From: Candidatus Gastranaerophilales bacterium
GTDB lineage: Bacteria; Cyanobacteriota; Vampirovibrionia; Gastranaerophilales; Gastranaerophilaceae
Direction of reading: 5' to 3'
Assembly (NCBI GenBank): GCA_944324825.1
Contig: CALUXU010000005.1
Coordinates: forward strand, 66,264-130,263
DNA length: 64,000 bases
The notes under the pieces were generated by a model. It was not told the origin of the DNA, made no database searches, and saw nothing but the letters and a program-made list of their open reading frames with translations. This document shows positions 787 through 19,831 of the stretch, piece by piece; the stretch's first letter is position 1, and the number at the start of each line of letters is the position of its first letter. Position numbers and translations under genes: made by a program.

Positions 787-790
787 GATT

Positions 791-821
791 AAAAAAGACA
801 GGTTTTAGGCCTGTCTTTTTT
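791..821 (+). terminator. Rho-independent terminator after tRNA-Ile
   Basis: AAAAGACAGG ... CCTGTCTTTT hairpin followed by a T run, immediately 3' of the tRNA. Confidence 0.8.
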
Positions 822-943
822 AATCTTTGTAGTAGGACGAGTAATAGGTTTCTGGGACATTGAGACGAGGAAAATTGAATAAAAAATCAAACAGACAGCA
901 CGATTGAGGCTGTTTTTTAGTATTGAGATGTAGGGGTCTTTTC

Positions 944-1038
944 GTCTTGGATTATTCGGGGTGTCGGAAAGTTCTCAGCTTCCCGACACCTTACGGGCTT
1001 GCTCGTCAAGCCTCACATCGCCCTACCGAAAATCCGCT
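944..1038 (+). repeat. P-module copy 1 (MITE-like hairpin element)
   Basis: GTCTTGGATTATTCGGGG - hairpin (GGTGTCGG...CCCGACACC) - TTACGGG ... CCCTACCGAAAATCCGCT. Related copies lie at 33061-33152 and 47342-47428. It is locally GC-rich in an AT-rich background. Confidence 0.7.
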
Positions 1039-1385
1039 GCACTTAAGTACTCTTTTCTTGCACTCTTTTGCACTCCATTTGCAAATTTTTAAAACCACAT
1101 TAGGCTCAAATCGCCTTGGTGTTTAAAGTTAAGCCCAGTGCAAGAGCGGCTTGTCGGCAGAGGGCTGAAGCGAAGCGTGCCCGTTTAACGCCGACAAACA
1201 AGAGAAGTGCAATAAAGTGCAATTTTATTTTTACTTGCAAATTGGGATACCCAAAATTATCAATGAGATTTAGATTTATTATTTTATTTCTATCATTCCG
1301 ACAGATTAAAAATTAACGAAATTATTATATGCTTCGTGACAACACTTAAATTAATCTACTAAAAATTTATGATAGTATTAATATT

Positions 1386-2429
1386 ATGAAAAACGAATTT
1401 ATTGAAAAATTTTATAACACAATTATTAGTGGCTTTGACAGTGATGAAATTCAAAAACAAAAATTTGAGGAAATAATTAAATCCGTAAAAGCAATAACTC
1501 CATCATCTTTATTTAGATATCGAAAAATTACTGATTATACTTTAAGTGATTTAGATAATGATATTATTTCTTTATCATATCCTAGTAGTTTTAATGATCC
1601 TTATGATTCTTTAATCAAAGCAGATAAACAAAAATTTATTGAAAATGTTTTAAATGTAAACAACAAAGACAAAATAATTAATTTAATAGAAAAAACTCCT
1701 GAAATTTTAAACAAATTAAATTTAAACAAAGAAAATAAAGAACAACTTGTTACATATATAAACAAGTTAAAGAGTGTACCAAATGAAGAAATTAAACAAT
1801 TATTACTATCGGCTCAAAATGTTATAGATTCTATATTTAATAGTGCTTGGAAAGATGTTTTTATTTATTTAAAATCAACTCCTCGTATAGCTTGTTTTTC
1901 TGAAGATGTTTCATCAAATGTCATGTGGGCACATTATGCTGATTCTCATAAAGGTTTTGTTATTGAATATAATTTTAATGATTATATTAATCTTTGTACC
2001 ACTTGTCAAAAGCAATGTCCCAACAGACATAATGAGTCACTATATCCAGTAAAATATTCAGACGAACGTTTTGATGTAACACCTTTATTAATTTATTCTG
2101 CAAATTTATTTTTAATGAAACAATTTTTAAAAGAAGGAACTGTATTATCTGATGATCAACTTGTTATTTATAAAGCATTACTAAGTAAATCAACAAATTG
2201 GAGTTATGAAAAAGAGTGGCGTTTAATTTCACTTAGTGACAATCCAAGATGTACAGAACAAATAAAATTAAAACCAAAAGCCATATATTTAGGGATTGAT
2301 ATTAGTTCAATAAATTCTAAGATTTTAAAATATCTTGCCAAGGAAAAAAACATTCCAGTATATCAAATGAATATTGATATTGAGTCAACAGATTATAAAA
2401 TGAATTACATCAAAATAGTTGAAACTTGA
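1386..2429 (+). CDS. Hypothetical protein, DUF2971-like
   Basis: 347-aa ORF. The block PRIACFSEDVSSNVMWAHYADSHKGFVIEYNF and the later WSYEKEWRLI resemble the DUF2971 family signature. This is recalled from memory, not searched. Confidence 0.6.
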   Translation: MKNEFIEKFYNTIISGFDSDEIQKQKFEEIIKSVKAITPSSLFRYRKITDYTLSDLDNDIISLSYPSSFNDPYDSLIKADKQKFIENVLNVNNKDKIINLIEKTPEILNKLNLNKENKEQLVTYINKLKSVPNEEIKQLLLSAQNVIDSIFNSAWKDVFIYLKSTPRIACFSEDVSSNVMWAHYADSHKGFVIEYNFNDYINLCTTCQKQCPNRHNESLYPVKYSDERFDVTPLLIYSANLFLMKQFLKEGTVLSDDQLVIYKALLSKSTNWSYEKEWRLISLSDNPRCTEQIKLKPKAIYLGIDISSINSKILKYLAKEKNIPVYQMNIDIESTDYKMNYIKIVET

Positions 2430-2530
2430 TAAATTATTCTTATATAAAAAGTTCTCAAATAAACACTTGACTTCTGTCTCAAAACGAGTGATGAATGTGT
2501 TGCACAAAGCATTACAAGGATTTTGAGATA

Positions 2531-4306
2531 ATGGAAAACCAAGTTGAGACAATCAAATACACCCCTGAGAAGGCAAAACAAAATGCTCTTGCAAAACTTG
2601 ATTTAATCCGCAAATGGCAGGAGTTTCGCCGTAAAGCTGTCAACAAACTTCAAGCAGACTATGATTTTGTCAAACTGCATAATAGTTCAGATTCTTACCT
2701 TTTCAATGTTTTAGGTAAAATCTCTCGAGGAAGCTTGCATCGTTGGAAAGCAAGTTTAGACGGAACAGAGGATTACACAAGGCTAATTCCTAATTACAAG
2801 TACGTTTCTGTGAACGAATACAGAACATGTCTAACGGATGAAGAAATCAAAATATTTATGGGCTTGCTCCTGCACCCGAATAGAATTTGTATCGGCAAAG
2901 CAATAGCACTTACAAAATATAAGCTCAAAGAGCAAGGTCAAAGTTTTATCCCTGCGGATATTACGTTTAGACGCTACGCAAAATGGTTTAAGGACAATAA
3001 TTACGACAAATGGGTGCTTGCTCGAGACGGCGAAAAAGCACTTTCAGACAAAGTTGAACCTTATATTAAAAGGGACGCTAGCCTGCTTGATGTCGGGGAT
3101 ATTTTAGTTGCAGACGGGCATAAACTGGCGTTTCAAGTGATTAATCCCTTTACGGGCAAGCCTTGTCGAGCAACTTTGGTCGGATTTTTAGACTGGAAAT
3201 CAACAGCACTGGTCGGGTATGAAATTATGCTTGAAGAAAACACCCAATGTATTGCAAGTGCCCTAAGAAACGCAATAATAAACCTTGATATGATACCTAA
3301 AATTGTCTATCAAGATAACGGCAGAGCATTTAGAGCAAAATACTTCACAGATGATAAAGGATTTGGAGAATTAGGCTTTTACGGGCTCTATGCAAAACTC
3401 GGGATTGAAACGGTATTTGCAAGACCATATAATGCAAGGTCAAAGGTTATTGAGAGGTTCTTCAAAGAATTTCAAGAAGGATTTGAAAAACTAATGCCAA
3501 GTTATGTCGGCTCATCAATTATCAACAAACCTGCGTACTTGAAACGAAACGAAATTTTTCATAAAAACTTACACCAAGATTATATCCCAACTATAGAAGA
3601 AACAATCAAAATGATTGATATGTGGCTTAAGTTTAAGAACTCTCAGCCCTGCACAAATGCACCGAATATGACAATCGCAGAGGTTTTAGAAAATCGAAAT
3701 AAACAGAATATTGATAAAAGCTTGCTTGACGATTTGATGTTGGCAACTGAAGTCAAAACAATTCAGCGAAACGGCGTAAGGTTCTTAAATTGTGACTATT
3801 TTGACGAAAGATTATACGGGTTAAGAGGAAAAGTTTTAGTAAAATACAACCTGTTTGATTTAACTAATGTGAAAGTTTTTACCCCGAAAGGTGAATATTT
3901 ATGCACAGCAGAGCGAGTAACCGAAACTCACCCGATGGCAAAGATTTTAGGAACAGTTGAGGATCTAGAGGATTACAAACAAAAAATCCAAAAACAACAA
4001 AAACTTAAACGGAAAACGATAAATTCGGTTAAAAAATTATTAACTGATGATGAAATAAAATTTTTAGAATGTCATTCTGAATTTATTTCAGAATCTGCAA
4101 CACCAGAGACCCTGAAACAAGTTCAGGGTGGCAATAAGTTCAAGCCTCGTTCAAATGGTGTTCAAAAAATAAACAACGGAGAAAAGTCTCTCCCGATTTT
4201 CAAAAACAATTCAGAAAAATATGAATATTTGATAAAACATAACCCAAGCGACACTTGGATTGCAGAATTTAAACAAACAAAGGAGTATAAACTGTTATAT
4301 GAATAG
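2531..4306 (+). CDS. DDE (rve-type) transposase, MuA/TnsB/TniA-like
   Basis: Candidate DDE triad VADGH / YQDNGRAF / VIERFFKEF. N-terminal HTH region, and a C-terminal barrel like the Mu transposase C domain (NGVRFLNCDYF...VLVKYNLFDLTNVKVF). Start moved from 2495 to ATG 2531 (MENQVE...), which has AAGGA upstream. Confidence 0.8.
   Translation: MENQVETIKYTPEKAKQNALAKLDLIRKWQEFRRKAVNKLQADYDFVKLHNSSDSYLFNVLGKISRGSLHRWKASLDGTEDYTRLIPNYKYVSVNEYRTCLTDEEIKIFMGLLLHPNRICIGKAIALTKYKLKEQGQSFIPADITFRRYAKWFKDNNYDKWVLARDGEKALSDKVEPYIKRDASLLDVGDILVADGHKLAFQVINPFTGKPCRATLVGFLDWKSTALVGYEIMLEENTQCIASALRNAIINLDMIPKIVYQDNGRAFRAKYFTDDKGFGELGFYGLYAKLGIETVFARPYNARSKVIERFFKEFQEGFEKLMPSYVGSSIINKPAYLKRNEIFHKNLHQDYIPTIEETIKMIDMWLKFKNSQPCTNAPNMTIAEVLENRNKQNIDKSLLDDLMLATEVKTIQRNGVRFLNCDYFDERLYGLRGKVLVKYNLFDLTNVKVFTPKGEYLCTAERVTETHPMAKILGTVEDLEDYKQKIQKQQKLKRKTINSVKKLLTDDEIKFLECHSEFISESATPETLKQVQGGNKFKPRSNGVQKINNGEKSLPIFKNNSEKYEYLIKHNPSDTWIAEFKQTKEYKLLYE
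4071..4130 (+). repeat. Two-hairpin repeat module lying in frame inside the transposase 3' region
   Basis: GTCATTCTGAATTTATTTCAGAATC + TGCAACACCAGAGACCCTGAAACAAGTTCAGGGTG. The same two-hairpin module, with covarying stem 1, occurs in non-coding DNA at 61133-61216. Confidence 0.65.
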
Positions 4307-4374
4307 CTGATTACAAGTAGTGGGTCTAAGGCGAAGCAGTACCCGTTTATTGCGAGCAACCAAGAAAGGATAAA

Positions 4375-5055
4375 ATGAAAAAAATCTTTATAAAAACTCG
4401 AAATGTAAGGAATTTTATAGGTTTAGTTGAAGCCCTAAAAAGCAAACCCAAAAACATTCCTAAAATGGGGCTTATATATGGCGAGCCGGGGCTTGGAAAA
4501 TCACAAACGGCACTTTGGCTAGCCTGCAAATATGACGGGATTTATATTCGAGCCTCAAACCTTATGACAAGCAGGTGGCTTGTTGAAGAAATTGTTAGAG
4601 AAATGGACGAACTCCCTCGGTATTTAACCTCGGACAACTTTAATGTCGTGATTAGCAAACTTATTCAAAAGCCCAAAATTATTTTTGTAGATGAAATCGA
4701 CTACTTGATGAACAATTACAAAAGTGTCGAAACCCTAAGAGATATCCACGATAAAACCGATTGTCCGATAGTCTTTGTCGGAATGAGCTTGGCTCTTAGA
4801 AAACTTGAAAGATACAAGCACCTGTATGATAGATTTAGCGAGATTGTAAAGTTTGAAACCTTTGAAATAGAAGATTTGAGTCAAATTTTTAACCAACTCT
4901 CTGAAATACCGTTTACCCCAGATTCGATAGAATATATCCACAAAAAATACAATAGGTTCAGACAAATAGTACAGCTTATAAGCAAACTTGAAACTATTGC
5001 AAAAGAAAATGGTCTAACAGAAATTACATTTGAAATTATAAAGGAACTCGTATGA
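4375..5055 (+). CDS. AAA+ transposition ATPase, MuB/TniB/TnsC-like
   Basis: Walker A GEPGLGKSQ and Walker B IIFVDEID. It lies directly downstream of the DDE transposase, the classical A-B gene order. Confidence 0.75.
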   Translation: MKKIFIKTRNVRNFIGLVEALKSKPKNIPKMGLIYGEPGLGKSQTALWLACKYDGIYIRASNLMTSRWLVEEIVREMDELPRYLTSDNFNVVISKLIQKPKIIFVDEIDYLMNNYKSVETLRDIHDKTDCPIVFVGMSLALRKLERYKHLYDRFSEIVKFETFEIEDLSQIFNQLSEIPFTPDSIEYIHKKYNRFRQIVQLISKLETIAKENGLTEITFEIIKELV

Positions 5056-5612
5056 ACATTGAAAAATTAGCTAAGAGATTAAAAGAATTTACCCTTGATG
5101 ATATTGAATTAATAGCAGAATGCGATTGCAAAACAAAACTTGAACAGCTTTTGAACAGCAATAAAATACTTTTTGAAAACGGAATTTATAAATACAATGA
5201 GGAAACGAAAACAGATGAAAATTATGAAATATTCAGCCCGCTAAAGAATAAACACCTAAAAATTAGTATAGAAGATGCAAAAGAATATTTTATGAAAAAT
5301 TATGTCGAAAAATACTGCAAATTCGAGACTTATAGAAACTATAACGCGATTTTTAATTTTAATATTATACCGTTTATAAACTGCTATTACCTGCACGAAA
5401 TTGATATTGAGTCGATAAAAGAACTTTTTAAAGTCTGCGAATTAAGACGCCTGAAACCCCGCAGAATTAAAAATACAATGGCTCTTCTAAACCAGCTGAT
5501 AAAATATTTCCAACACCTTGGAGTGATTGATAGAAGTTGCGTCTATCAGGTTAAAAAAGTACAAGACAAAAACCATTTTGGAATAGAAAACTTAATTTTT
5601 GAGGGATTTTAA
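5052..5612 (+). CDS. Hypothetical protein; C-terminal half resembles a tyrosine-recombinase core-binding (SAM-like) domain
   Basis: Start overlaps the stop of the ATPase gene (ATGA). The pattern ETYRNYNAIFNFNIIPF...LHEIDIESIKELF...RRIKNTMALLNQLIKYFQHLGVIDRS looks like an integrase N-terminal domain without a catalytic domain. This assignment is tentative. Confidence 0.5.
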   Translation: MNIEKLAKRLKEFTLDDIELIAECDCKTKLEQLLNSNKILFENGIYKYNEETKTDENYEIFSPLKNKHLKISIEDAKEYFMKNYVEKYCKFETYRNYNAIFNFNIIPFINCYYLHEIDIESIKELFKVCELRRLKPRRIKNTMALLNQLIKYFQHLGVIDRSCVYQVKKVQDKNHFGIENLIFEGF

Positions 5613-6010
5613 TGAGTAAAATGAAATTATTTAAACAAGCAGAGCAAATGTATTTAAAAGGCTCAACCGTTTGTGAAATCTCTTTAGAACTTGGGATTGC
5701 CAAAAGAACTTTGTTTTACTGGAAAAAGCAATATGATTGGGATAAAAAGCGAAAAGAATCCATGTATGATAGAGCACAATTCAAAGACGATTTGCAAAAG
5801 TTTGCCAAAAAACTAATGGAAAAAATCGCAAACAGTAATAAAACTAATAATCAGATAAACCAAGCAGAATACTATTCCCTTGTAAATATTTTGAACTTTC
5901 TCCCTGAACTGAAAGAAAACAATACTCAAACAGAAACACCCCAAATAAAAACAGAACTTTCTCCTGACTTCATCCGCCAAATCGAGTGTGAAATTTTAGG
6001 TATAGAATAA
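5612..6010 (+). CDS. Small HTH protein (terminase-small/gp27-like or transposase-HTH-like)
   Basis: Translationally coupled to the upstream gene (TAATG). HTH-like STVCEISLELGIAKRTLFYWKKQYDWDKKR. The family assignment is a guess. Confidence 0.5.
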   Translation: MSKMKLFKQAEQMYLKGSTVCEISLELGIAKRTLFYWKKQYDWDKKRKESMYDRAQFKDDLQKFAKKLMEKIANSNKTNNQINQAEYYSLVNILNFLPELKENNTQTETPQIKTELSPDFIRQIECEILGIE

Positions 6011-6017
6011 CTCCTGC

Positions 6018-6047
6018 AAATTTTTGTGCTATCCTTGTAGAAAAAGG
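6018..6047 (+). promoter_or_regulatory. Conserved upstream cassette (putative extended -10 promoter plus RBS) of the HNH gene
   Basis: AAATTTTTGTGCTATCCTTGTAGAAAAAGG, with TGC-TATCCT as a possible TGn-extended -10. It is nearly identical to 6751-6779 upstream of the Mrr gene. Confidence 0.45.
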
Positions 6048-6053
6048 TAAAAT

Positions 6054-6686
6054 ATGGAAGATAAGTTTTTACAATATATTCAATCAAGACCAAAATCCGC
6101 AAAGTCTGGTTCTAATTATGTTAGTGGAATAAATAGTATTTCTAAAAAATTCTTAGATCAAAATCTTTTTTCTATTACATCTCCTAAAATTGTTGAAAAA
6201 ATAATATTTGATTTAGAAAATAATGATAAATTCATGACCGAAAATTCAAAAGGGCATAATATGTACCTTCGTGCGATTAAGCATTATAAAAATTTTCTAT
6301 CTGAAAATCAAGATTTGAATAGAAATAAAATATCAAGTTTATCTGAAAAGCAAATTACAAATATGCCTTATTATGAAGGTAATACAATAGAAAGAACTAT
6401 TATACAAAAATCTAGAAATAGGAATATTGTTAAACAGGTCAAAGAAGGAGATAATTATACTTGCAAGGGATGTGGTTTTTATTTCTACAATAAAATTGTA
6501 GAGGTACATCATTTAATTCCTCTTTCTAATATGGATGGAGAAAAACAGATAAAAAAAGAGGACTTAATTACTCTTTGTCCAAATTGTCACGCAATAGCTC
6601 ATTTATTGTTAAATGAAGATGAAAAATACAAAAATCGTAAAATTTTAATTGATAAGTTGCAGGAAATTTATAAGTTAAATAAATAA
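6054..6686 (+). CDS. HNH endonuclease
   Basis: CKGCGFYF...VEVHHLIPLSNMDG...LITLCPNCHAIAH gives the CxxC...HH...CxxCH HNH/zinc motif. The N-terminal ~130 aa are of unknown function. Confidence 0.8.
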   Translation: MEDKFLQYIQSRPKSAKSGSNYVSGINSISKKFLDQNLFSITSPKIVEKIIFDLENNDKFMTENSKGHNMYLRAIKHYKNFLSENQDLNRNKISSLSEKQITNMPYYEGNTIERTIIQKSRNRNIVKQVKEGDNYTCKGCGFYFYNKIVEVHHLIPLSNMDGEKQIKKEDLITLCPNCHAIAHLLLNEDEKYKNRKILIDKLQEIYKLNK

Positions 6687-6750
6687 CTTTCTTTGTTAAA
6701 TATTGATACAACGATACGAAAAGAGATTTAGGTAGAGAATAAGTCTCCAT

Positions 6751-6779
6751 AAATTTTTGTGCTATGCTTAAGAAAAAGG
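6751..6779 (+). promoter_or_regulatory. Conserved upstream cassette (second copy) of the Mrr gene
   Basis: AAATTTTTGTGCTATGCTTAAGAAAAAGG. The first 15 nt are identical to 6018-6032, and it has the same position relative to the start codon. Confidence 0.45.
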
Positions 6780-6788
6780 AGTTTTTGA

Positions 6789-7682
6789 ATGGCAATACCT
6801 AAATATGATGAATTAATGATACCAGTTTTAGAAGTTTTATCCGATAAAAAAGAACATCGAATTACGGAAATTGTTGATATTTTAGCAAAGAAACTAAAAT
6901 TAACAAATGAAGAATTGGAGGAAAAAATTTCTAGTGGTAGTAATAAATTCGCAGGTAGAGTAGGTTGGGCTAGAACATATTTAAAAGCTGCTAAATTGAT
7001 AGATTCAACTAGAAGAGCCTATTTTGTTATTAATGAAAGAGGAGAAAAAGCCCTTCAAGATAAACCTAAAGATTTATTAAATTATCTAAAACAATATAAT
7101 GAATTTTTAGAATTTGTTAAACCTAACAAAGATGAAAAAAACTCTGATAAAAACATACAAGAAAGTAAAACTGATACTCCAGACGAAATGTTAGCACATG
7201 CTCAGGATATGTATAAAGAAAATCTACAAACAGAATTGCTAACAAGATTAAAACAAATTGACCCGGTAAGATTTGAACAAATAGTTCTTCAACTTATGGA
7301 AAAAATGAATTATGGTGTCGGTTCAATGACAAAAATGAGTCATGATGGTGGAGTAGACGGCATAATTGATGAAGATGAATTGGGATTAGAAAAAATCTAC
7401 CTGCAAGCTAAAAGATACTCAGACAATAAAGTTAATGAAAAAGAAATGCAAAATTTCGCAGGGGCTCTAGGCTGTTCTCCGGTAAGAAAAGGAGTATTTA
7501 TAACAACCAGCTTCTTTGATGAAAGAGCTAAAAAGAAAGCCGCATCTGTTCAAGGTAAAATTATACGATTAGTAGACGGTGAAGAATTAACAAAATTGAT
7601 GATTAGGCATAATTTAGGTGTACAAGTTAAAACTAAAATCGAAATCAAGAAGATTGATGAAGATTTCTTTAGTGAAGAATAA
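6789..7682 (+). CDS. mrr: Mrr-family (type IV, modification-dependent) restriction endonuclease
   Basis: N-terminal winged-helix region (IPKYDELMIPVLEVL...) followed by the Mrr catalytic signature HDGGVDGIIDEDELGLEKIYLQAKRY. Confidence 0.85.
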   Translation: MAIPKYDELMIPVLEVLSDKKEHRITEIVDILAKKLKLTNEELEEKISSGSNKFAGRVGWARTYLKAAKLIDSTRRAYFVINERGEKALQDKPKDLLNYLKQYNEFLEFVKPNKDEKNSDKNIQESKTDTPDEMLAHAQDMYKENLQTELLTRLKQIDPVRFEQIVLQLMEKMNYGVGSMTKMSHDGGVDGIIDEDELGLEKIYLQAKRYSDNKVNEKEMQNFAGALGCSPVRKGVFITTSFFDERAKKKAASVQGKIIRLVDGEELTKLMIRHNLGVQVKTKIEIKKIDEDFFSEE

Positions 7683-7706
7683 TTTTAAAAATATAGGTGT
7701 TACTAG

Positions 7707-8123: not shown

Positions 8124-8145
8124 TAGTGGTTATAGTAATTTACTT

Positions 8146-8907: not shown

Positions 8908-8999
8908 ACGACCTCCTAACACAACACAATAGCGTGAAAGTCGTAAAACACACTGAAAATTTTACATAACAACACATAAATTTGTTAATACAATTTAAA

Positions 9000-11077: not shown

Positions 11078-12949
11078 CTATTTTTTAATATTTGAATCTG
11101 GAGTTAACCCTTTTCTTCTCATAAAGAGTATTCTATCCAACAAATCACTATCGTAAAATCTTTCTTTACTTTTACTCCACATTTTGAAATCAGCTATCAG
11201 TTCAGAATTTGAACAAGTTAAATTGTTATTCAAACGATTTTTCCAAACTGCATATAACGTTGCTATAGACTCACAAAAATCTGAATTTTTCCCCTTAAAA
11301 AGATCCATTAATTTATCTATTTTTGATAGACTTCCTGCAAACACATCATTGTACAATGTTTTGATTTCATGACAATTTTCTAAAGGAAGATATTTGGTAA
11401 TTTCAACAGAACCGTTCGTTACTTTCTGAACATCAAACCATTTTTTTATTTTTAAAATATCTTCAACCTCATATCTTGATTTTGCATCATATGGTCCTGC
11501 TGCTTCTTTTTTATATTTCCCATTTAGAGTGATACCTAGATGAGTTTCACAAAGATATAGAATTTTTTCTAATTTTACAGCGCCAAAATACTTTTCTTCA
11601 TGCATTTCATTAATAATCTTTGCACTCAAGACAGCTCTTTTATAATTTAAGTCAATAATTTCATTTGAATTCTCTTTTTGAGTAAAATAGTTTTGCAGTA
11701 TAGATTGAAATAACTCAGAAGATGATTTCTGTGCAATACTGTTCTTAATTTCTAATTCTTCACATATTTGCATTAATTTATCCACATTAGTGACAATTCT
11801 CTTTTGTTCTGCTAATGGAGGAAGAGGAAGTAAATATGCTATAATTTTTTCTCTGGAAATATTTGGTTGAGCACCCCCGTCACCTCTTTTTCTTAGGTTA
11901 TCCCTTTCAGAAAGCAAATAATAAAATAAAAATTTAGTTTCTATTTCTTGGAAAGCAATACAGGCACAGCAAGCTTGGTTTGTTGTCGCTGGAATTGTTA
12001 AAATCCCAAGTTTTCCAATAGTTGCCCCATACATAGCAATAAGCAGTGAACCTATTGGTTTTATCTTTACAGATGTTTGTTCTAGTGCTAATTCAGTTAT
12101 TTTTTCAGGTATCTCTGTAATAAAACTGTCATTTAAATCTCCTGTTTTTAGCCAAGGAATTGTTCCATTAAAATAATAGTCTGTTCTTGCTCTATTGGGT
12201 GTTGAACCAGCACCCCAATCACCTATATCGCCAAGTCTTACCCATTGCCAGCCTTGCGGAAGGTCGTATGGGATTTCGTCCTGGGTGATTGAGGGTAGAG
12301 ATTTTTCTTTTTTGATTTTGCCGTCTTTTATTAGTTGTTCTTTTTCAGCTTTTATGCGTTTTAAAAGTTCTGATGCAGGTTCATCTTGAGGATTTTGCTC
12401 GACAAGTTTTCCTTGGACTGCGTATTGCAAAATGGATGTTCTTAAATCTGTAATATAATTATTCTGTTCTTGATATTTTTGGTTTATTTTTTTTAACTCA
12501 ATTTGTGATTTTTTAATAGTATTTACCACTTTGACTTGTTGCTCAATTTTTGGAATCTCTATTGTAATTGTTTTTATAGAATTAATTGTTAGTGATACAT
12601 TAGCAGCACCTTTCATTAAAGGAACAATTTTGCTATCTTTGTAAAAAGTTAAATAATAATACAAATATTCTGCATTTAAGAGATTTTCGTCATTAGGAAT
12701 TACAGCGGCTAATATATTTCCAAGAGCGAATTTCCCCTCTTGATAATGCAAACGCTTTAAACTTGCATGTCCATGTCCTGTCGAAGATACCAAAGGTATA
12801 CATACTGCTTTAGCATCAAATTGAAACTCGTTACTAGATAATCTGTTTTCTGCAGTAACAACTAATGGATATTCTCCTGGTATAGCTTTTTTTATGCCAG
12901 TAGTCCCTTTTATAATAGTACAAATTTCGCCAAGTTTATATTGTTGCAT
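11078..12949 (-). CDS. hsdS: Type I R-M specificity subunit HsdS with an extra ~190-aa C-terminal domain
   Basis: Two target-recognition domains (YKLGEICTIIKGTTG...; WQWVRLGDIGDWGAGSTP...), central repeat LLKRIKAEKEQLIKDGKIKK and distal repeat LPPLAEQKRIVTNVDKLMQICEELE. About 190 further residues follow that normal HsdS proteins lack. Confidence 0.85.
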   Translation of the reverse strand: MQQYKLGEICTIIKGTTGIKKAIPGEYPLVVTAENRLSSNEFQFDAKAVCIPLVSSTGHGHASLKRLHYQEGKFALGNILAAVIPNDENLLNAEYLYYYLTFYKDSKIVPLMKGAANVSLTINSIKTITIEIPKIEQQVKVVNTIKKSQIELKKINQKYQEQNNYITDLRTSILQYAVQGKLVEQNPQDEPASELLKRIKAEKEQLIKDGKIKKEKSLPSITQDEIPYDLPQGWQWVRLGDIGDWGAGSTPNRARTDYYFNGTIPWLKTGDLNDSFITEIPEKITELALEQTSVKIKPIGSLLIAMYGATIGKLGILTIPATTNQACCACIAFQEIETKFLFYYLLSERDNLRKRGDGGAQPNISREKIIAYLLPLPPLAEQKRIVTNVDKLMQICEELEIKNSIAQKSSSELFQSILQNYFTQKENSNEIIDLNYKRAVLSAKIINEMHEEKYFGAVKLEKILYLCETHLGITLNGKYKKEAAGPYDAKSRYEVEDILKIKKWFDVQKVTNGSVEITKYLPLENCHEIKTLYNDVFAGSLSKIDKLMDLFKGKNSDFCESIATLYAVWKNRLNNNLTCSNSELIADFKMWSKSKERFYDSDLLDRILFMRRKGLTPDSNIKK

Positions 12950-12950
12950 A

Positions 12951-14378
12951 TTATCCTTTTAATTGTTCTTCAAGACGTGAAAGAATAGCATTAATCTGTT
13001 TATTATTATCTCTTATTCTTGCTATTAATTCTTGGGGAGTTTTCATAATTTTAGTTTCTGATTTATTTGGATTTTTAAAATCAAGATTATAATTATTATT
13101 TATAACATCTTCTATCGATACTCGCCAAGCAAGATCATTCTCAATTTTGTTTTTCCACCAACTTCTTATTGAATTAAATTCTTCATTTTTAATAGGATTT
13201 GTTTTTGAGTAACTTTTTAATCCATCAGGGAGTTTGTGTTCATAAAACCATATAAAATTTGTAGGTTCTCCTTTTTTAAAAAACAATAAATTTGTGCCTA
13301 CTGTTGCATAAGGTTTAAAAACAGAGTTTGGTAATCTTATAATAACTTCTAAATTACAAGTTTCAAGAAGTTCTTGTCTTATTCTTGTTTTTACACCTTC
13401 TCCAAAAAGAGAACCGTCTGGTAATACAATACCTGCACGTCCTTGTGGTTTTAACATTTTCATTATGTATACTAAAAATAAGTCAGCTGTTTCACGAGTT
13501 CTAAAACTTGCCGGAAAATTATTTTCAATACCATCTTCTTCAATACCTCCAAACGGAGGGTTTGTAACAATACAATCTACTCTATCAGCAGGTGAAATAT
13601 TATTAATCGGTTTTGATAGAGTATTATCACGTCTGATATTTATCGGAGTATCAATTCCGTGCAAAATCATGTTAGTTGTGCATAATTGATGAGGAAGCGG
13701 TTTCTTTTCTATTCCAAAGATGGAATTATTTAAAATTTCACCCTCTTTTGTTGTATCTGCTTGCTTTTTCAAGTGTTCAATCGCACAGGCTAAAAATCCG
13801 CCCGTACCACAAGCCGGGTCAAGAACTTTTTCTCCAAGTTGAGGATTAACCATATCAACAATAAATTGGGTTACTGCTCTTGGAGTGTAATATTCTCCTG
13901 CATTGCCTGCTGATTGAAGACTTTGCAAAAGCTGTTCATAAATATCATTAAAAAGATGTCTATCTTCGCTTGAATTAAAGTCAATTTCATTAATCTTATT
14001 TATAACCTGTCTGAGCAGTGTGCCTGATTTCATGTAGTTGTAAGTATCTTGAAAAATATTTCTTATAATCAATGCTTGTTGGTTAGAATCATTTTCCAGA
14101 TTTTGTAAATACGGAAATAAATCATTATTTATAAAGTCAATGAGTTCATCTCCTGTCATACCCTCATCATCTTGAGCCCAGTTTTGCCAGCGGTATTTTT
14201 CTTCAAGCGGAGATTTGTAATCATCTTTCATAACCTCTGCTTCATCTTCTTTATCGGCAAAGATTTTCAAAAACAGCATCCAAACGATCTGCGACAGTCT
14301 TTGTGCGTCGCCGTCAACGCCTGTATCCTTCCTCATTATGTCCTGTATAGCTTTTATTACACTTGATATATTTGGCAT
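12951..14378 (-). CDS. hsdM: Type I R-M DNA methyltransferase subunit HsdM
   Basis: AdoMet motif LDPACGTGGFL and catalytic VTNPPFGG, with an HsdM N-terminal helical domain. Its stop is 1 nt from the hsdS start. Confidence 0.92.
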   Translation of the reverse strand: MPNISSVIKAIQDIMRKDTGVDGDAQRLSQIVWMLFLKIFADKEDEAEVMKDDYKSPLEEKYRWQNWAQDDEGMTGDELIDFINNDLFPYLQNLENDSNQQALIIRNIFQDTYNYMKSGTLLRQVINKINEIDFNSSEDRHLFNDIYEQLLQSLQSAGNAGEYYTPRAVTQFIVDMVNPQLGEKVLDPACGTGGFLACAIEHLKKQADTTKEGEILNNSIFGIEKKPLPHQLCTTNMILHGIDTPINIRRDNTLSKPINNISPADRVDCIVTNPPFGGIEEDGIENNFPASFRTRETADLFLVYIMKMLKPQGRAGIVLPDGSLFGEGVKTRIRQELLETCNLEVIIRLPNSVFKPYATVGTNLLFFKKGEPTNFIWFYEHKLPDGLKSYSKTNPIKNEEFNSIRSWWKNKIENDLAWRVSIEDVINNNYNLDFKNPNKSETKIMKTPQELIARIRDNNKQINAILSRLEEQLKG

Positions 14379-14531
14379 TTAGTTATCCTCTAATTTAAAA
14401 GTTTATTGTTTATTTCTTTTAACTCTTCTATTTGTTTTAATAATAAATTTCTTGTTTTTTCTAAATCAGCTTTTCTTTCATATATTTGTTGTAATAACCC
14501 ATCGTTAGTTCCATATAAAATATTTTCTTTT

Positions 14532-14993
14532 TTATTTTTTTTCAATAAAAAATTTTATTTTTAACTCTACGTAAGTAAAGATTTTTATTCTATATTCCTG
14601 AATATTTTTATTTATTTCATTTAATATCTCATTTTGTTTTGGAGCATCAATTAACCAATTTTTCAGGCTTAATATGCAATTACCAAAACCTTCGGCTATT
14701 TCCATATCAATATAATTTGCTTGTTTCTCAATTAATTCACTATCGTTTAGATTCTCTTGATATGTTTGTGTTGTATGTTTAGAAAATACAGTTGATTCTA
14801 ATTCATAATATTGTAAATCTTGTATATATGCATTTAATGTTTCTAATAAAGTAACAAGTTTTCTTCTTTTTTGCTCATTTTTCCAAGTATTTAATGCCTT
14901 CCAAGCAGCAACAGCCATAAAACCAGTAGCCACCATCATTAAAAAAGTTGAGATTGCTGTTATAGCAGACCAAATAATATTCCATTCCATCAA
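14532..14993 (-). CDS. Hypothetical N-terminal-TM protein between hsdR and hsdM (probably frameshifted at an A8 tract)
   Basis: Start overlaps the hsdR stop (ATGA). TM helix IIWSAITAISTFLMMVATGFMAVAAW. The ORF stops right after an A8 run (plus-strand T8 at 14535-14542). The -1 frame stays open to 14390 and reads as a coiled coil. Confidence 0.55.
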   Translation of the reverse strand: MMEWNIIWSAITAISTFLMMVATGFMAVAAWKALNTWKNEQKRRKLVTLLETLNAYIQDLQYYELESTVFSKHTTQTYQENLNDSELIEKQANYIDMEIAEGFGNCILSLKNWLIDAPKQNEILNEINKNIQEYRIKIFTYVELKIKFFIEKK

Positions 14994-17386
14994 GCCACCT
15001 CATTATCATTAAAAAGCTCTTTTTCCAGTTCTTTTATAGCTTCTTCGTACTTAGCTTTTCCGCCAAATTCTTTGATTATCTCCATTGGTGTACCGATTTC
15101 ATCAAACGGTTGGAATTTTAAAATTTCTCTGTTTTCAATCTCTTCAATACCGTCATCTGCAAATTTATCAATCAATGCATTAAGAACTTTTCTTGCTTTC
15201 TCTGAATATTTGCCAAAATAGTTTCTTTTCTTAATTTTTTCTGCTCTTTCTTTGCGTGAGAGCGGAGGCATATCAAAGGTTATATGGCATATCAGGTCAA
15301 AAACACTCAGGTCTTTGCCTGTTTTTTGTTTAACTTCTTCTCTCAATTCATCGAGCATTACACCTTGTTCTATAAGTTCATCAATAATCGCAGATTTTTT
15401 ATCAGCTTCTGACCATTTTTTGATAAAGTCATCCATTGTTGCAAATTGTGCTTTAAGATTCTTTTTTGTATAATCAATCAGGCTTTCTGTTATCAATTTG
15501 CCGTCATTACCATAATATTGAACTCTTTCACCGACTTGAACAACCTCAATCCCATTTACATAAAATTTTCCGGTAGGTTTTTCTATATTCGTAATATCAA
15601 TGTCCGGAGGAATTTCTACAATCGTTTCATCAACGGAGAGGTTATCAATAATATTCTCGACCTCTTCTTTAGACTGTTCTTCTTTAGGCATTTCTTCATT
15701 TTCTTGAACTTCTTTAACCTGAACTGGCTCGCCGTCAAATTCTTTATCTTCAAATAATCTAGTAACCCCGCGGAAATCAAGAATTGTAAAGTACCATTTA
15801 TTATAATCCGGTCTTAAACGTGTTCCACGACCGATAATTTGTTTAAATTCTGTCATTGAATTGATGTTGCTATCTATTGCTATAAGTTTGCAGGTCTTAG
15901 CATCAACTCCTGTTGTCATTAGCTTTGAAGTTGTTGCAATTACAGGATATGTAATTTCCGGATCGATAAAGTTATCAAGTTCCTTTTTTCCCTCATCATT
16001 ATCGCCGGTAATTTGCATTACATATTTTGAATTTTCTGCAACCAAATCAGAGTTTTCATTTACCAATGCTTGACGCATTCTGTTAGCATGGTCAATGTCT
16101 GTACAGAAAACAATTGTTTTGTCATACCTATTATTATTTTTCAGGTATTGAGTTATTCTTTTTGCAACAAGTTCCGTACGTTCATCAACAACAATCTTTT
16201 TATCAAAATCTTTTACGTTGAATTCTTCATCTGGAACTTCATTACCATACTTATCAATCGTACCTTGTGGAAGTTTTAATCCGTCAAGGTCAATATTTAT
16301 TATTGGTCTTACAACTTTATAAGGGGCTAGAAAACCGTCTTCTATACCTTGTTTTAGAGAATACGTATAAATAGGTTCGCCAAAATATTCTATATTTGAA
16401 ACTTCTTTTGTTTCTTTTGGTGTTGCAGTCAAGCCAAGCTGTGTTGCTGATGAAAAATAGTCTAAGATTTCTCGCCAGCTTGAATCATCTTTTGCACTCC
16501 CTCTATGACATTCATCAATGACAATTAGATCAAAGAAATTTCTTGAAAACTCTTTATACGCATCTTTGTCTTCATTATTTCCAGTAATCCCCTGATATAA
16601 TGCCAGATAGATTTCATAAGATTTATCTATCTGGCGTTTTGTAATTTTTGTCATTTTATCACCGAAAGGTGCAAAATCTTGGCTTTTTGTTTGGTCAATT
16701 AAAATATTTCTATCAGCTAAAAACAAGATACGTTTTTTCTTTTTAGCCTTCCATAAACGCCAGATAATCTGAAATGCCGTATAAGTTTTACCTGTGCCTG
16801 TTGCCATTACAAGCAGAACTCTGTCCTGCCCTTTTGCTATTGCTTCAACGGCTCTGTTAATCGCAATTCTTTGATAATATCGAGGCTCTTTATTTGTTGC
16901 CAAATCCTTGTGGTAGGCTTGCGTGTATATTTTTTCAGTTTCAGTATCTTCCAGTTGTTTATATTTCTTGTATTTTTCCCATAACTCCTGTGGTGAGGGG
17001 AATTTATCCAAAGGTAATTCTATTTCTTTTTTACCTAAATCGACTGTTTTGTCATGAAAAATAAAAGCATCCCCATTAGATGAAAATACAAAAGGTATAT
17101 CCAGCATTTGAGCATATTCTAAAGCCTGCTGAATCCCCGCTCCGACACAGTGATTGTTGTCTTTTGCTTCCACAATCGCAAGAGGAATATTGTTTTTATA
17201 ATACAAGATGTAATCAGCCCGTTTACTTTTGCCACGAGAAACAAGCTTTCCTCTAACTATTACCTTGCCAGCAGTGAAAGAAACTTCTTCTCTAATCTGC
17301 GAGTCTTTGTCCCAACCTGCTTTTATTATTGCTGGTGTTATAAATTTTGTGCAAATATCACGTTCAGATAAATCTTTTTTATTCAT
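14990..17386 (-). CDS. hsdR: Type I restriction enzyme R subunit HsdR
   Basis: N-terminal nuclease region (ADYILYY...IVEAKD), helicase motif I MATGTGKT, motif II VIDECHR, and a C-terminal helical domain as in EcoEI-type R subunits. Confidence 0.92.
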   Translation of the reverse strand: MNKKDLSERDICTKFITPAIIKAGWDKDSQIREEVSFTAGKVIVRGKLVSRGKSKRADYILYYKNNIPLAIVEAKDNNHCVGAGIQQALEYAQMLDIPFVFSSNGDAFIFHDKTVDLGKKEIELPLDKFPSPQELWEKYKKYKQLEDTETEKIYTQAYHKDLATNKEPRYYQRIAINRAVEAIAKGQDRVLLVMATGTGKTYTAFQIIWRLWKAKKKKRILFLADRNILIDQTKSQDFAPFGDKMTKITKRQIDKSYEIYLALYQGITGNNEDKDAYKEFSRNFFDLIVIDECHRGSAKDDSSWREILDYFSSATQLGLTATPKETKEVSNIEYFGEPIYTYSLKQGIEDGFLAPYKVVRPIINIDLDGLKLPQGTIDKYGNEVPDEEFNVKDFDKKIVVDERTELVAKRITQYLKNNNRYDKTIVFCTDIDHANRMRQALVNENSDLVAENSKYVMQITGDNDEGKKELDNFIDPEITYPVIATTSKLMTTGVDAKTCKLIAIDSNINSMTEFKQIIGRGTRLRPDYNKWYFTILDFRGVTRLFEDKEFDGEPVQVKEVQENEEMPKEEQSKEEVENIIDNLSVDETIVEIPPDIDITNIEKPTGKFYVNGIEVVQVGERVQYYGNDGKLITESLIDYTKKNLKAQFATMDDFIKKWSEADKKSAIIDELIEQGVMLDELREEVKQKTGKDLSVFDLICHITFDMPPLSRKERAEKIKKRNYFGKYSEKARKVLNALIDKFADDGIEEIENREILKFQPFDEIGTPMEIIKEFGGKAKYEEAIKELEKELFNDNEVA

Positions 17387-17464
17387 TAAGACCTCGCAGC
17401 TTTTGTTACAATTGTATCATGAACATAGCAAACATTAATAAAGATAATTAGTTATTTGAGCTAA

Positions 17465-18004
17465 TTACAAATAAAAATTCCTATAAACTTCATCGATATC
17501 TTCTTGTTCGATGCCGATGTAGCGAAGTGTTACTGATGGCGAAGAGTGGTTAAAGATTTTTTGCAGGAGTACTATATCATTATATTTTTTATAATGATGA
17601 TACCCGAATGTCTTTCTCAATGTATGTGTTCCGATTCTTTCCTTCACCCCAACAGCTTGTGCTGCCTTATTCAAAATTCTATACGCCTGTGCCCTATCCA
17701 GTCTGCAATGTTTTTGTGTATAAAATAGCGGCTGCTCGGGCGGTTTATCTTTTACAAATTCTTCTATCTCCCCCTTCAAAAACCTATTGAGCGGAAATTT
17801 CTTATACTTATTCGTCTTTTTCTCTCTAATTTCAATATAATCTCGGCCCTTTACATCCCCAACATCAAGCGATAATATATCAGATATTCTAAGTCCTGTA
17901 TTTATCCCAAAACTAAAAAGCAGAGCATCTCTTGGCTTTTTTGCCAAATATTTTTTAATCTTTTGAATATCTTCTATCTTTTTTATAGGTTGTACTACAT
18001 TCAT
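17465..18004 (-). CDS. Small tyrosine recombinase (catalytic domain only, 179 aa)
   Basis: GLRISDIL (Arg I), HTLRKTFG (H-x-x-R), NHSSPSVTLRYIG (His/Tyr nucleophile region). It has no N-terminal core-binding domain. Confidence 0.85.
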   Translation of the reverse strand: MNVVQPIKKIEDIQKIKKYLAKKPRDALLFSFGINTGLRISDILSLDVGDVKGRDYIEIREKKTNKYKKFPLNRFLKGEIEEFVKDKPPEQPLFYTQKHCRLDRAQAYRILNKAAQAVGVKERIGTHTLRKTFGYHHYKKYNDIVLLQKIFNHSSPSVTLRYIGIEQEDIDEVYRNFYL

Positions 18005-18073
18005 TTTAAACTCGTCTAATTACAGACAATGATTGCTTCTTCCCTATAAAAAGTAAAGTCTAATGACACAAAA

Positions 18074-18144
18074 TTTAAACACTATTTAAACGATATTTAA
18101 ACAGCGTTCAAAAAGTGTTCAAAAATTTCAGCAATGTTCAGAAT
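18074..18144. promoter_or_regulatory. Phased direct repeats upstream of the recombinase gene
   Basis: TTTAAAC at 18074, 18085 and 18096 (11-bp phase). GTTCAAAAA at 18106 and 18117, and GTTCAGAAT at 18136. Confidence 0.5.
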
Positions 18145-18246
18145 ATACTTCCACCTGCAAAAATCTATTTTATCCTACCTCTATACATTTACCCCCAAAA
18201 TACAACACAACTTCATTTTGTTGCATTTTTCAATTTGTTAAATGTT

Positions 18247-18303
18247 GGATAATATATTATCTAAATATTGACTTTTTAGTAAAAATAGTATAATATATTA
18301 TCC
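18247..18303 (+). promoter_or_regulatory. hipBA promoter with two palindromic operator-like sites
   Basis: GGATAATATATTATCT (18247-18262) and GTATAATATATTATCC (18288-18303) bracket TTGACT (18268-18273) and TATAAT (18289-18294). The half-sites GGATA/TATCC are like HipB operators. Confidence 0.6.
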
Positions 18304-18582
18304 ATGAATGGCTTTTTCTTTAATCCTAAAACTCCTAATGATATAGCGCATGAATTGGTTGAGAAAATTAAGCAGCATCGAAAAAAGCTTAAAATTTCTC
18401 AGGCTCAACTTGCTTCAAAATCGGGTGTCAGCCTTGGTTCTATCAAAAGGTTTGAGTCCAAGTATGAAATTTCTTTGAATTCTTTTATAAAAATTCTAAT
18501 AGCTCTTAATTTAGAGCAGGATTTAGAAAATTTATTCACGCAAAAAAGCTATAACTCAATTGAGGAAGTTATAAATGGATAA
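18304..18582 (+). CDS. hipB: XRE-family HTH antitoxin (HipB-like)
   Basis: HTH KISQAQLASKSGVSLGSIKRFE. It overlaps the start of the HipA-like gene by 8 nt. Confidence 0.8.
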   Translation: MNGFFFNPKTPNDIAHELVEKIKQHRKKLKISQAQLASKSGVSLGSIKRFESKYEISLNSFIKILIALNLEQDLENLFTQKSYNSIEEVING

Positions 18583-19678
18583 ATATAAATATTTAAAAGT
18601 TTTTTATAATGATATTTTAGTTGGTACTCTGGCTAAAACTCCAGATAGAGTTGTTGCCTTTGAATATGATTTAGATTGGTTGAATAATGGGTTTAGCATT
18701 TCACCTTTTAGTTTACCGCTCATCAAGAAAGTTTTTATTCCAAAATATGACCCATTTGGTGGATTATTTGGAGTTTTTAATGGCAGTTTGCCTGATGGTT
18801 GGGGGCGGTTACTTGTTGATAGATTATTTTTGAAAAATAAAATTAATCCTGCTGAAATAGATAATCTTAATCGACTTGCTGTTGTTCAAGAATGTGGCAT
18901 GGGGGCTTTGACTTACAAGCCTGAGCATAAGTTTGAATCAGAAAATAATATTTCGGATTATGATATTCTTGCTCAAGAATGTTCAAAGATATTAGAATCA
19001 CAAAATTCAGAAAATTTGGATGAACTTTTTAAATTAGGTGGCTCATCTGGTGGTGCAAGACCAAAGATTTTGATATCTATTGATAACGAGGATTGGATTA
19101 TTAAGTTTCCATCATCCTCTGATTCTAAAAATATTGGTGAAAAAGAATATCAATATTCCCTATGTGCAAAAGATTGCGGAATAAATATGACAGAAACAAG
19201 GCTTTTTCCTTCTAAAATTTGTTCAGGATATTTTGGGATAAAAAGGTTTGATCGTAAAAACGGTAAGAAAATTCATATGATATCAGCAAGCGGACTTTTA
19301 GAGACAAGTCATAGACTTCCTAATCTTGATTACAATACATTGATGAAATTAACACTTGAACTAACAAGAAACTATCAAGATATTGAACAATTATTCAGGC
19401 TAATGTGCTTTAATGTTTTTGCACACAACAGAGATGACCATTCAAAGAATTTTTCTTTTCTTTTTAATGATACAAAAAAAGAATGGCACATATCTCCTGC
19501 GTACGATTTAACTTACAGTTTTTCATTTAATGGGGAACATGCGACAACAATTAATGGCGAGGGCAAAAATCCGACTTTAGACGATATTCTAGCCGTGGCA
19601 AAAAATATAGGACTCAAGGAAAAATTTGCAAAAGATATTGCATCAGATATTCAAGAAAAGTGCTCGAAATTATTTTAA
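18575..19678 (+). CDS. hipA: HipA-family serine/threonine kinase toxin
   Basis: HipA N-terminal coupling region (VGTLAKTPDRVVAFEYDLDWL), GGSSGGARPK, and catalytic loop HNRDDHSKNFSF. Confidence 0.88.
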   Translation: MDKYKYLKVFYNDILVGTLAKTPDRVVAFEYDLDWLNNGFSISPFSLPLIKKVFIPKYDPFGGLFGVFNGSLPDGWGRLLVDRLFLKNKINPAEIDNLNRLAVVQECGMGALTYKPEHKFESENNISDYDILAQECSKILESQNSENLDELFKLGGSSGGARPKILISIDNEDWIIKFPSSSDSKNIGEKEYQYSLCAKDCGINMTETRLFPSKICSGYFGIKRFDRKNGKKIHMISASGLLETSHRLPNLDYNTLMKLTLELTRNYQDIEQLFRLMCFNVFAHNRDDHSKNFSFLFNDTKKEWHISPAYDLTYSFSFNGEHATTINGEGKNPTLDDILAVAKNIGLKEKFAKDIASDIQEKCSKLF

Positions 19679-19811
19679 TTAATCTCATCTTTTTGTGTAT
19701 TTAATCTTTGAACAGAAGTTTCTTTATACCTCCATTGCCTTAATTTTCGGTTCAACATTTTATCTGTGATTTCACGCAAAACAATACTTAATTGTTTTGC
19801 TGTACGGCAAC

Positions 19812-19831
19812 GGAGTCCTTACTGCGGCCCA
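19812..19831 (+). repeat. Duplicate of the tRNA-Ile 3' tail (putative attR of the island)
   Basis: GGAGTCCTTACTGCGGCCCA compared with the tRNA tail CGAGTCCACTGCGGCCCA. ACTGCGGCCCA matches exactly, and GAGTCC is retained with a 2-nt insertion. Confidence 0.65.

Follow-up and report, generated by a model that had tools for sequence, protein, structure and literature searches.

In a 64,000-nucleotide stretch of DNA (the window) from a Candidatus Gastranaerophilales bacterium (genome G000, 2.12 Mb; G-numbers denote genomes and L-numbers loci throughout), positions 842-19731 probably form one Mu/Tn7-like transposon of 18.9 kb. The transposon starts 56 nt past a tRNA-Ile gene, in the same orientation as the tRNA, and fills about 99% of the interval between this gene and a downstream repeat of its tail. 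An initial annotation had described the whole interval, 787-19831, as an island in the 3' end of tRNA-Ile closed by the tail repeat. We favour a reading in two layers, with the tail repeat as a relic of an older event and a transposon without TnsA or TniQ as a later arrival. From the positions of its copies, the transposon belongs to a family that evidently homes to sites just downstream of tRNA genes. The family is widespread in gut Melainabacteria, carries anti-phage genes and is apparently an undescribed TnsA-less variant of the Tn7/Mu-like type. Tn7-like elements homing to tRNA genes, CRISPR-associated transposons (CASTs), TnsF and Tsy have been described in the literature; we found no description matching this family.

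The ends of the element and their surroundings are composed as follows (strand in brackets):

713-786 (+), tRNA-Ile(GAT), the attachment gene; Rfam tRNA 63.6 bits, ARAGORN 712-787
787-841 (+), flank preceding the transposon: hairpin and T-run terminator (790-826, hairpin identified by eye and not called by the terminator scan), then CTTTGTAGTAGGACGAG; common to the sister species G007 up to 841
842-1385 (+), putative left end of the transposon and leader, opening with TAATAGGTTTCTGGGACATTGAGAC; about 87-96% identical to copies in six genomes
19680-19731 (+), putative right end of the transposon, ...TTAATCTCATCTTTTTGTGTATTTAATCTTTGAACAGAAGTTTCTTTATAC; copies diverge immediately after the shared end
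19732-19811 (+), 80-nt non-conserved spacer from transposon end to tRNA relic; absent after the right end in other genomes
19812-19866 (+), relic of the tRNA-Ile 3' end (GGAGTCC-TT-ACTGCGGCCCA) with native-type terminator, to judge by alignment with L094 and a terminator scan
19867-20085 (no strand), lineage-specific spacer before core synteny returns, from the homology comparison with genus relatives

On the left, the window resembles G007 as far as 841 and has no similarity to it from 842, where an element start common to six genomes begins (TAATAGGTTTCTGGG / TAATAGGTTTCTGGGACATTGAG). Copies of the left end are present in G043, G015, G038, G006, G004 and G003, with hydF/tRNA flanks that are only about 76% identical; in the source genome the left end is single-copy. 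On the right, the copies in the window, G007, G015, G043, G069 and G065 part directly after ...TTTCTTTA (...AAGTTTCTTTA), and this conserved end stops 80 nt short of the tail repeat.

The ends enclose an ordered backbone, which recurs from left end to right end in eight or more genomes that span different genera and families. Its order is left end, TnsB-like transposase, TnsC-like ATPase, core-binding-domain protein, helix-turn-helix (HTH) protein and three small open reading frames (ORFs), followed by a convergent tyrosine recombinase consisting of the catalytic domain only, hipBA and the right end. Segments 842-1278, 2464-6057, 8159-8917, 17466-18083 and 18094-19731 are collinear in G043, G015 and G038 (blastn, about 85-97% identity), with unrelated DNA in the cargo slots between them. 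The block of recombinase and hipBA/right end lies 21-25 kb after the tRNA or a tail copy in five further genomes. The locus flanks are 71-77% identical in most genus relatives, and 85-86% in G007 and G001. The excess of backbone identity (85-97%) over flank identity (71-77%) suggests that the element moved recently, and by this comparison the backbone has evidently been transferred between lineages in recent time.

The interval 787-19831 is accessory DNA. The synteny of hydF with tRNA-Ile is kept in all genus relatives, and the content of the interval differs in every one of those examined. In G009 both flanks are found on one contig, 4.3 kb apart. The DNA between them is of other content: an islet of 2.3 kb closed off by a 46-nt repeat of the tRNA tail, further remnants resembling att sites, a CAT-like gene and one lone copy of the transposon's right end. 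In several metagenome-assembled genomes (MAGs) the contig ends just past tRNA-Ile. The claim that everything between the two sites is accessory is thus borne out in that the interval is inserted and variable in relatives, but hipBA and the recombinase are parts of the transposon backbone and not independent of it.

The core operon consists of four co-directional genes, some of them overlapping:

2495-4306 (+), TnsB/MuA-like DDE transposase, 603 aa; Mu-transpos_C above cut-off, rve below
4375-5055 (+), TnsC/TniB-like AAA+ ATPase, 226 aa; AAA_22 (49.7 bits) and TniB (32.5 bits, cut-off 22.4) both pass
5052-5612 (+), stand-alone integrase core-binding-domain protein, 186 aa; winged helix and SAM-like four-helix domain, without catalytic domain
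5612-6010 (+), small HTH protein, 132 aa, closing the operon; Terminase_5 (5.2e-9), weak HTH_Tnp_1 and DUF1804

The transposase reaches 52.6 bits against Mu-transpos_C (cut-off 21.7) and 22.1 bits against rve (cut-off 32.6), and its residues D207, D274 and E320 are invariant in 18 homologues. Its sole transposase match in a profile comparison with the PDB is TnsB of the type V-K ShCAST (E 0.007), with residues 217-456 colinear with 225-463; a phmmer search of the PDB gave no match. The ATPase, with invariant Walker A and B motifs, has its best PDB profile matches in VchTnsC (1.4e-4) and ShTnsC (0.05). The 186-aa protein has no Pfam match of its own, and its homologues carry PF14659. Its AlphaFold2 (AF2) model, at a predicted local distance difference test score (pLDDT) of 83, displays a winged helix and a four-helix domain, and the top Foldseek matches of the model are integrase core-binding domains (lambda Int, root-mean-square deviation 1.8 Å over 92 residues). 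The position of the HTH protein is conserved in all relatives. None of the island ORFs matches TniQ or TnsD in Pfam or NCBIfam, and none is TnsA-like by Pfam.

Used as the query against species-representative genomes, the core-binding-domain protein identified 209 loci. Nearly all of the 80 that are listed belong to Gastranaerophilales/Melainabacteria MAGs, and among the matches listed the protein is at least 96% identical in about 35 species. A same-strand tRNA gene is found upstream of tnsB in 42 of the 61 loci with a near-full transposase, at a distance of at least 55 nt. Genomes of this kind have an estimated 45 or so tRNA genes per 2 Mb, from which an upstream tRNA would be expected by chance in about 3% of cases. 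The tRNAs among the 42 are those for Ile, Arg, Leu, His, Tyr, Asp, Gly, Gln, Glu, Thr and Met, to which further loci add tRNA-Val and tRNA-Ser. The sole opposite-strand tRNA in these loci is a tRNA-Ser about 1.2 kb further upstream in L138. Transposase homologues also adjoin, on the downstream side, tRNA-Ile, tRNA-Leu(CAG) and tRNA-Ser(GCT) in relatives and tRNA-Asp and tRNA-Ile in metagenome contigs. The shortest spacing between tRNA and left end is 55-63 nt across loci (56 in the window); where the gap is wider, partial or tandem left ends lie within it. What precedes the element is not always a full tRNA: G043 and three other loci have a tail copy of 42-46 nt there instead (46 nt in G043).

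The core-binding-domain protein differs from its operon partners in how its sequence relates to the tRNA. Identity to the window across the family is about 77% for TnsB, 75% for TnsC, 54% for the core-binding-domain protein and 42% for the HTH protein. Between elements at the same tRNA the median pairwise identity of the core-binding-domain protein is 85%, compared with 57% between elements at different tRNAs; the corresponding medians are 91 and 84% for TnsB, 88 and 79% for TnsC, and 52 and 53% for the HTH protein. Relative to the window, the core-binding-domain proteins of Ile-type elements are 61-64% identical and those at other tRNAs at most 57%, with TnsB flat at 75-80%; L110 (Asp) and L125 (Thr) have TnsB proteins that are 97% identical. 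Because the identity of the core-binding-domain protein tracks the tRNA, and that of TnsB, TnsC and the HTH protein does not, this protein is likely the target selector, in a role like that of TnsF, TniQ or TnsD. TnsF provides a precedent for a target selector derived from a tyrosine recombinase (PMC10293859).

The tail repeat requires a separate account. The sequence GGAGTCCTTACTGCGGCCCA at 19812-19831 carries the last 11 nt of tRNA-Ile exactly and keeps GAGTCC with a 2-nt insertion. Rfam agrees with the initial annotation on the tRNA end at 786, which ARAGORN puts at 787; a check of the sequence agrees with it on the repeat itself, and the terminator scan on a separate terminator, a hairpin at 19843-19861 with a T run after it. 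The 11-mer ACTGCGGCCCA is present in two copies in the window (the second at 19821-19831) and nowhere else in the 2.12-Mb genome, whereas base composition predicts about 0.003 copies in 64 kb and 0.085 in the genome; it is not a common genome-wide repeat. The tRNA-Ile 3' end and native terminator of L094, a locus from another Gastranaerophilales species, can be aligned with 19812-19875 for 63 nt, at about 8 differences and a score of 43; the window's own tRNA flank scores 16. This match argues that the tail repeat is derived from the tRNA and did not arise by chance, and on the strength of the alignment 19812-19866 is evidently the displaced original 3' end of tRNA-Ile and not the boundary of the present element. 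The proposal that the repeat closes the island fails, since the right end of the transposon lies 80 nt earlier and the tail is absent after other right ends.

Similar remains are found in close relatives. G007 has a 16-nt tail relic about 170 nt past the tRNA, with no transposon between, and G001 a more decayed one after hipA; the spacer 19732-19811 has weak similarity to the G007 relic. The 8-mer GCGGCCCA, the 11-mer and the T-arm sequence GGTTCGAGTCC were not found in about 1.5 kb after seven other right ends, nor in the G007 and G001 loci. The element occurs at tRNA-Arg, tRNA-Val and tRNA-Leu as well as at tRNA-Ile. Flank homology had been expected to resume from 19832; instead, homology to 11 genus relatives restarts at 20068-20122, mostly near 20086, where the TPR gene ends. 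In place of the 19867-20085 spacer, G007, G001 and G009 have an ORF of about 155 aa.

We consider it probable that two layers are superimposed here, a relic and a later transposon lacking TnsA and TniQ. The older layer would stem from an event that struck the tRNA gene site-specifically, in its T-loop/acceptor part, and displaced the original 3' end and terminator; what remains in the window of the element responsible would amount to about 55 + 80 nt (787-841 and 19732-19811). In the recent layer, the transposon would have landed 56 nt behind the reconstituted tRNA-Ile, inside the relic. The core-binding-domain protein may bind the 3' part of the tRNA gene and recruit the ATPase; the transposase would then be positioned to join the left end about 55-60 bp downstream. 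As TnsA is absent, we propose that transposition is replicative; the absence of TnsA is known for replicative branches (PMC8649781). Resolving cointegrates would fall to the small tyrosine recombinase, perhaps aided by the core-binding-domain protein; the same absence of TnsA suggests this role (PMC8649781). Repeated homing to one tRNA would stack elements and leave remnants of their ends.

Several observations sit uneasily with this interpretation. A clean empty site was found in none of the genomes compared, including the empty tRNA-Ile site that the initial annotation had suggested looking for in relatives. At the tRNA-Leu(GAG) site of the G038 insertion, only the tRNA matched in three relatives, and synteny was not conserved. 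No 5-bp target duplication flanks 842-19731, and the terminal sequences are not obvious inverted repeats; a weak inverted match between 1049-1090 and 19620-19660, with three TTGCA-type motifs, scores 13.5 against 10.1 +/- 1.1 in shuffles (maximum 14), about 3 s.d. higher. The right end in G069 is directly followed by a repeat of 36 nt from the left flank, CTAATATTTGTTCGCAGAAATTTTCCCAGGAGAATT, and in G065 11 nt are repeated along with a left-end remnant. In L065 (2147-2335) the last 12 nt of tRNA-Arg(ACG) and 68 nt of flank occur twice before the left end. The transposase and the ATPase are only remotely similar to solved TnsB and TnsC, and the AF2 model of the transposase, built on an 18-sequence alignment, is unusable at pLDDT 40. 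The homology between the spacer and the G007 relic is weak, so that an older, separate event is something we only infer. As regards the selector, core-binding-domain proteins 98-99% identical to one another are found at tRNA-Ile, tRNA-Arg and tRNA-Leu(GAG), with one of the same clade at tRNA-Val, which indicates that tRNA specificity is not strict.

The duplications in G069 and L065 are not predicted by simple insertion of the Tn7 type. These duplications and the repeat in G065 could result from stacked insertions followed by deletion, or from an unusual joining step. The two copies of CTAATATTTGTTCGCAGAAATTTTCCCAGGAGAATT, at L060 1432-1467 and in L140 (both G069), belong to one 25-kb element, and their length far exceeds a target duplication of the Tn7 or Mu type. 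In L065 the second copy of the tRNA-Arg tail and flank ends exactly at the left-end junction. At L060 2586-2635, between a unit of left end plus cargo and a second left end, there is an internally deleted copy of a whole tRNA-Ile with its 5' flank, which indicates stacked units.

Set against the two-layer reading, it is unlikely that 787-19831 is one island that entered tRNA-Ile by site-specific integration, with the repeat as its attR and a recombinase of its own, possibly in two pieces. Such an island would account for a tRNA-derived repeat followed by a native-type terminator, for the short tail relics that accompany the transposon in the window, G007, G001 and L065 (tRNA-Arg), and for the presence in the element of both tyrosine-recombinase halves with catalytic residues intact. 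However, the conserved right end precedes the repeat by 80 nt, and GCGGCCCA is absent after seven other right ends and at G007 and G001. The flank before the left end varies among copies and therefore does not travel with the element, a tail copy precedes the element in G007 and G043, and the same element is found at four different tRNAs. The idea that a resident integrase made the repeat likewise finds no full-length integrase in the interval, only split domains. Classical tRNA islands with a P4-type integrase do use the same tRNA-Ile in relatives, and the displaced tail with native terminator is attR-like. Those islands, of about 20 kb in L052/G046 and 11 kb in L053/G047, have a 372-aa integrase beside the tRNA, repeats of 42-57 nt starting from the anticodon loop, among them att repeats of about 50-57 nt, and conserved arm-type repeats TTATGTACTATTTATGGAC, whereas the window has none of these features and its relic is only 17 nt with a 2-nt insertion. 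Either recombinase half has at most generic homology to the 372-aa integrase.

We are similarly doubtful of a version in which the core-binding subunit both reads the tRNA gene, steering TnsC/TnsB there, and pairs in trans with the catalytic subunit as a two-piece recombinase. The two genes are 12 kb apart, on opposite strands. A recombinase of this kind would perform cointegrate resolution or recombination at the T-loop, and the latter would create the short tail repeats beside the elements in the window, G007, G001 and L065 (tRNA-Arg).

There is little to recommend the view that unrelated accessory genes have collected piecemeal at a recombination hot spot, with the transposase operon as one passenger among them. 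Variable cargo among genomes, inserts resembling miniature inverted-repeat transposable elements (MITE-like), tandem partial left ends, relics and a candidate nested cassette between sites of about 50 nt at 8642-8691 and 18067-18127 would all be at home in a patchwork, but an ordered backbone in at least eight genomes, with identity above that of the core flanks, and two outer boundaries that are sharp in independent contexts would not. Finally, it is scarcely credible that the 20-nt repeat arose by chance or belongs to a dispersed family with no relation to the tRNA. It is short, broken by 2 inserted nt and located beyond the conserved end of the element, but it has just two copies in 2.12 Mb against 0.085 expected, a similarity that runs 40 nt further into the native-type tRNA-Ile terminator of L094, and counterparts in the tail relics of G007 and G001.

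Taken as a transposon, the element has relatives among known systems. Tn7-like elements without tnsA, with a resolvase and with tRNA-proximal sites have been reported (Benler et al. 2021, PMC8649781). The present element is closest to two groups taken together, these tnsA-less transposons with a resolvase (Tn5053/Tn402 type; clades 2 and 3; PMC8649781) and the tRNA-homing Tn7-like elements and CASTs (type V-K; I-B2 and I-D with TnsD homing, PMC10293859). In common with them it has a Mu-transpos_C DDE transposase beside a TniB/TnsC-type AAA+ ATPase, no TnsA, a tyrosine recombinase aboard, orientation-specific insertion tens of bp past the tRNA, and a cargo dominated by defence systems. It differs from them in having no TniQ/TnsD homologue or CRISPR module, in a third gene that encodes an integrase core-binding domain, and in a recombinase that is a bare catalytic domain. 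Neither a 5-bp duplication nor clear TnsB-site arrays were found, and similarity to solved TnsB and TnsC is marginal, at E 0.007 and 1e-4.

The closest parallels to the presumed selector are found in Tsy elements and in TnsF of Tn6022-like Tn7 transposons (Faure et al. 2023, PMC10293859), with a non-catalytic tyrosine-recombinase derivative in the transposition operon; the likeness is one of domain kind and position and not a sequence comparison. TnsF, at about 500 aa, combines zinc fingers with two core-binding-like domains and a catalytic domain that is dead; it acts with TniQ and targets comM (PMC10293859). At 186 aa, the protein here consists of a winged helix and a single core-binding domain, without a catalytic remnant or TniQ, and the targets are tRNA genes. 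With Mu (MuA, MuB) the element shares Mu-transpos_C, a small AAA+ partner and an HTH protein with weak DUF1804/terminase-small-like similarity. Unlike Mu, it has no phage structural genes, its insertion is site-specific and not near-random, and MuA is not among the PDB profile matches.

If the transposon reading is right, what appeared to be an ordinary tRNA island becomes a well-delimited mobile element whose three defence slots are exchangeable, and through it DRT2, restriction systems and toxin-antitoxin genes would pass from one genus of gut Melainabacteria to another. The case would also show that a repeat of a tRNA tail can lie close to an island without being its boundary. If the core-binding-domain protein selects the target, it would be a minimal, naturally retargetable module with variants for at least 12 tRNA genes, and could direct a TnsB/TnsC machine without CRISPR, TniQ or TnsD. 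This would be relevant to the way in which Tn7-like elements gain their selectors and to designing tools for site-specific insertion.

The remaining backbone modules and the cargo consist of:

1386-2429 (+), cargo slot 1: DUF2971 / PDC-S31 defence-candidate gene; Pfam DUF2971 1.9e-12, PADLOC PDC-S31 5.9e-43
6054-8123 (+), cargo slot 2: HNH endonuclease (6054-6686), type IV Mrr (6789-7682) and a 138-aa ORF; Pfam HNH, Mrr_N, Mrr_cat
8159-8917 (-), backbone module 2: ORFs 8146-8328, 8328-8543 and 8683-8922; 85-87% identity in G043, G038 and G015
9000-11077 (-), cargo slot 3a: probable DRT2 reverse transcriptase (9000-10688) and a 390-nt upstream non-coding region; NCBIfam, PADLOC Drt2
11078-17386 (-), cargo slot 3b: type I restriction-modification (R-M) system with hsdS (11078-12949), hsdM (12951-14378), a 153-aa ORF and hsdR (14990-17386)
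17465-18004 (-), backbone module 3: catalytic-domain-only tyrosine recombinase, 179 aa; Phage_integrase 2.9e-25
18304-19678 (+), right-terminal backbone module: hipB (18304-18582) and hipA (18575-19678); Pfam HTH_3, Couple_hipA, HipA_C

Pfam, NCBIfam and PADLOC confirm every gene named in the initial annotation, and refine the identities of the reverse transcriptase, the DUF2971 gene and the recombinase. Three exchangeable cargo slots are occupied here by PDC-S31, by HNH and Mrr, and by DRT2 and the type I R-M system. Slot 1 has other genes or is empty in G043, G038 and L060, and slot 2 DNA differs in G043, G038 and G015. The Mrr gene matches PADLOC mREase_IV at 2e-68. Against the Drt2 models the reverse transcriptase scores 340 bits in NCBIfam, under the cut-off of 390, and 375.7 bits (1.1e-112) in PADLOC. 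The R-M assignment is based on Pfam Methylase_S for hsdS, N6_Mtase and HsdM_N for hsdM, and ResIII, EcoEI_R_C and HSDR_N for hsdR. Backbone module 2 is partly present in G007. The recombinase module has about 87-91% DNA identity in G043, G015 and G065-G069, and the hipBA module 86-91% in G015, G043, G007, G001 and G065-G069.

The leader of the left end contains an internal terminator-like hairpin and arrays of TTGCAC/GTGCAA repeats. Two small GC-rich hairpin (MITE-like) inserts lie inside it, at 944-1037 and 1144-1204, and are missing or placed elsewhere in other copies of the element: in G043 and G015 the gap between tnsC and the core-binding-domain gene contains an insert like the first, and in G038 one like the second interrupts the transposase gene. 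In the transposase gene of the window, an in-frame segment of about 125 nt near the C-terminus (4070-4194) is unaligned in relatives with 72-80% identical transposases; it is common to G043, and its portion 4107-4140 matches a dispersed hairpin repeat. Rfam identifies two tRNAs and nothing else over 1-23000, with no family match for the GC-rich left-end leader or the DRT2 leader. The latter, 10689-11077, is the non-coding stretch where the template ncRNA of DRT2 would be expected. The GC content of the island is 31.0%, compared with 34.7% in the rest of the window, a gap too small to be diagnostic. The hsdS product has 623 aa, about 190 residues above the usual length, and Pfam covers just its two specificity domains.

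The 179-aa recombinase covers just the catalytic part of Xer profiles, with a complete R..K..HxxR..H..Y set. In 80 loci searched over the 6 kb beyond the core operon, no small recombinase turned up, which makes its association with distant members of the family tentative. It could serve as a cointegrate resolvase, as a partner of the core-binding-domain protein, or as a cassette exchanger at the sites of about 50 nt mentioned above. These two sites, 8642-8691 and 18067-18127, are partly palindromic and related, with 15 nt exact (AACACTATTTAAACG); ORF79, DRT2, the type I R-M system and the gene of the small recombinase all lie between them, and both sites are kept in G015 and G043. They could be a pair of resolution sites or the ends of a nested cassette. 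Two further catalytic-domain-only recombinases of 179-185 aa, 57-60% identical, are encoded in G000 (C2:31-567 and C9:51965-52501), and the family is multi-copy across Gastranaerophilales genomes.

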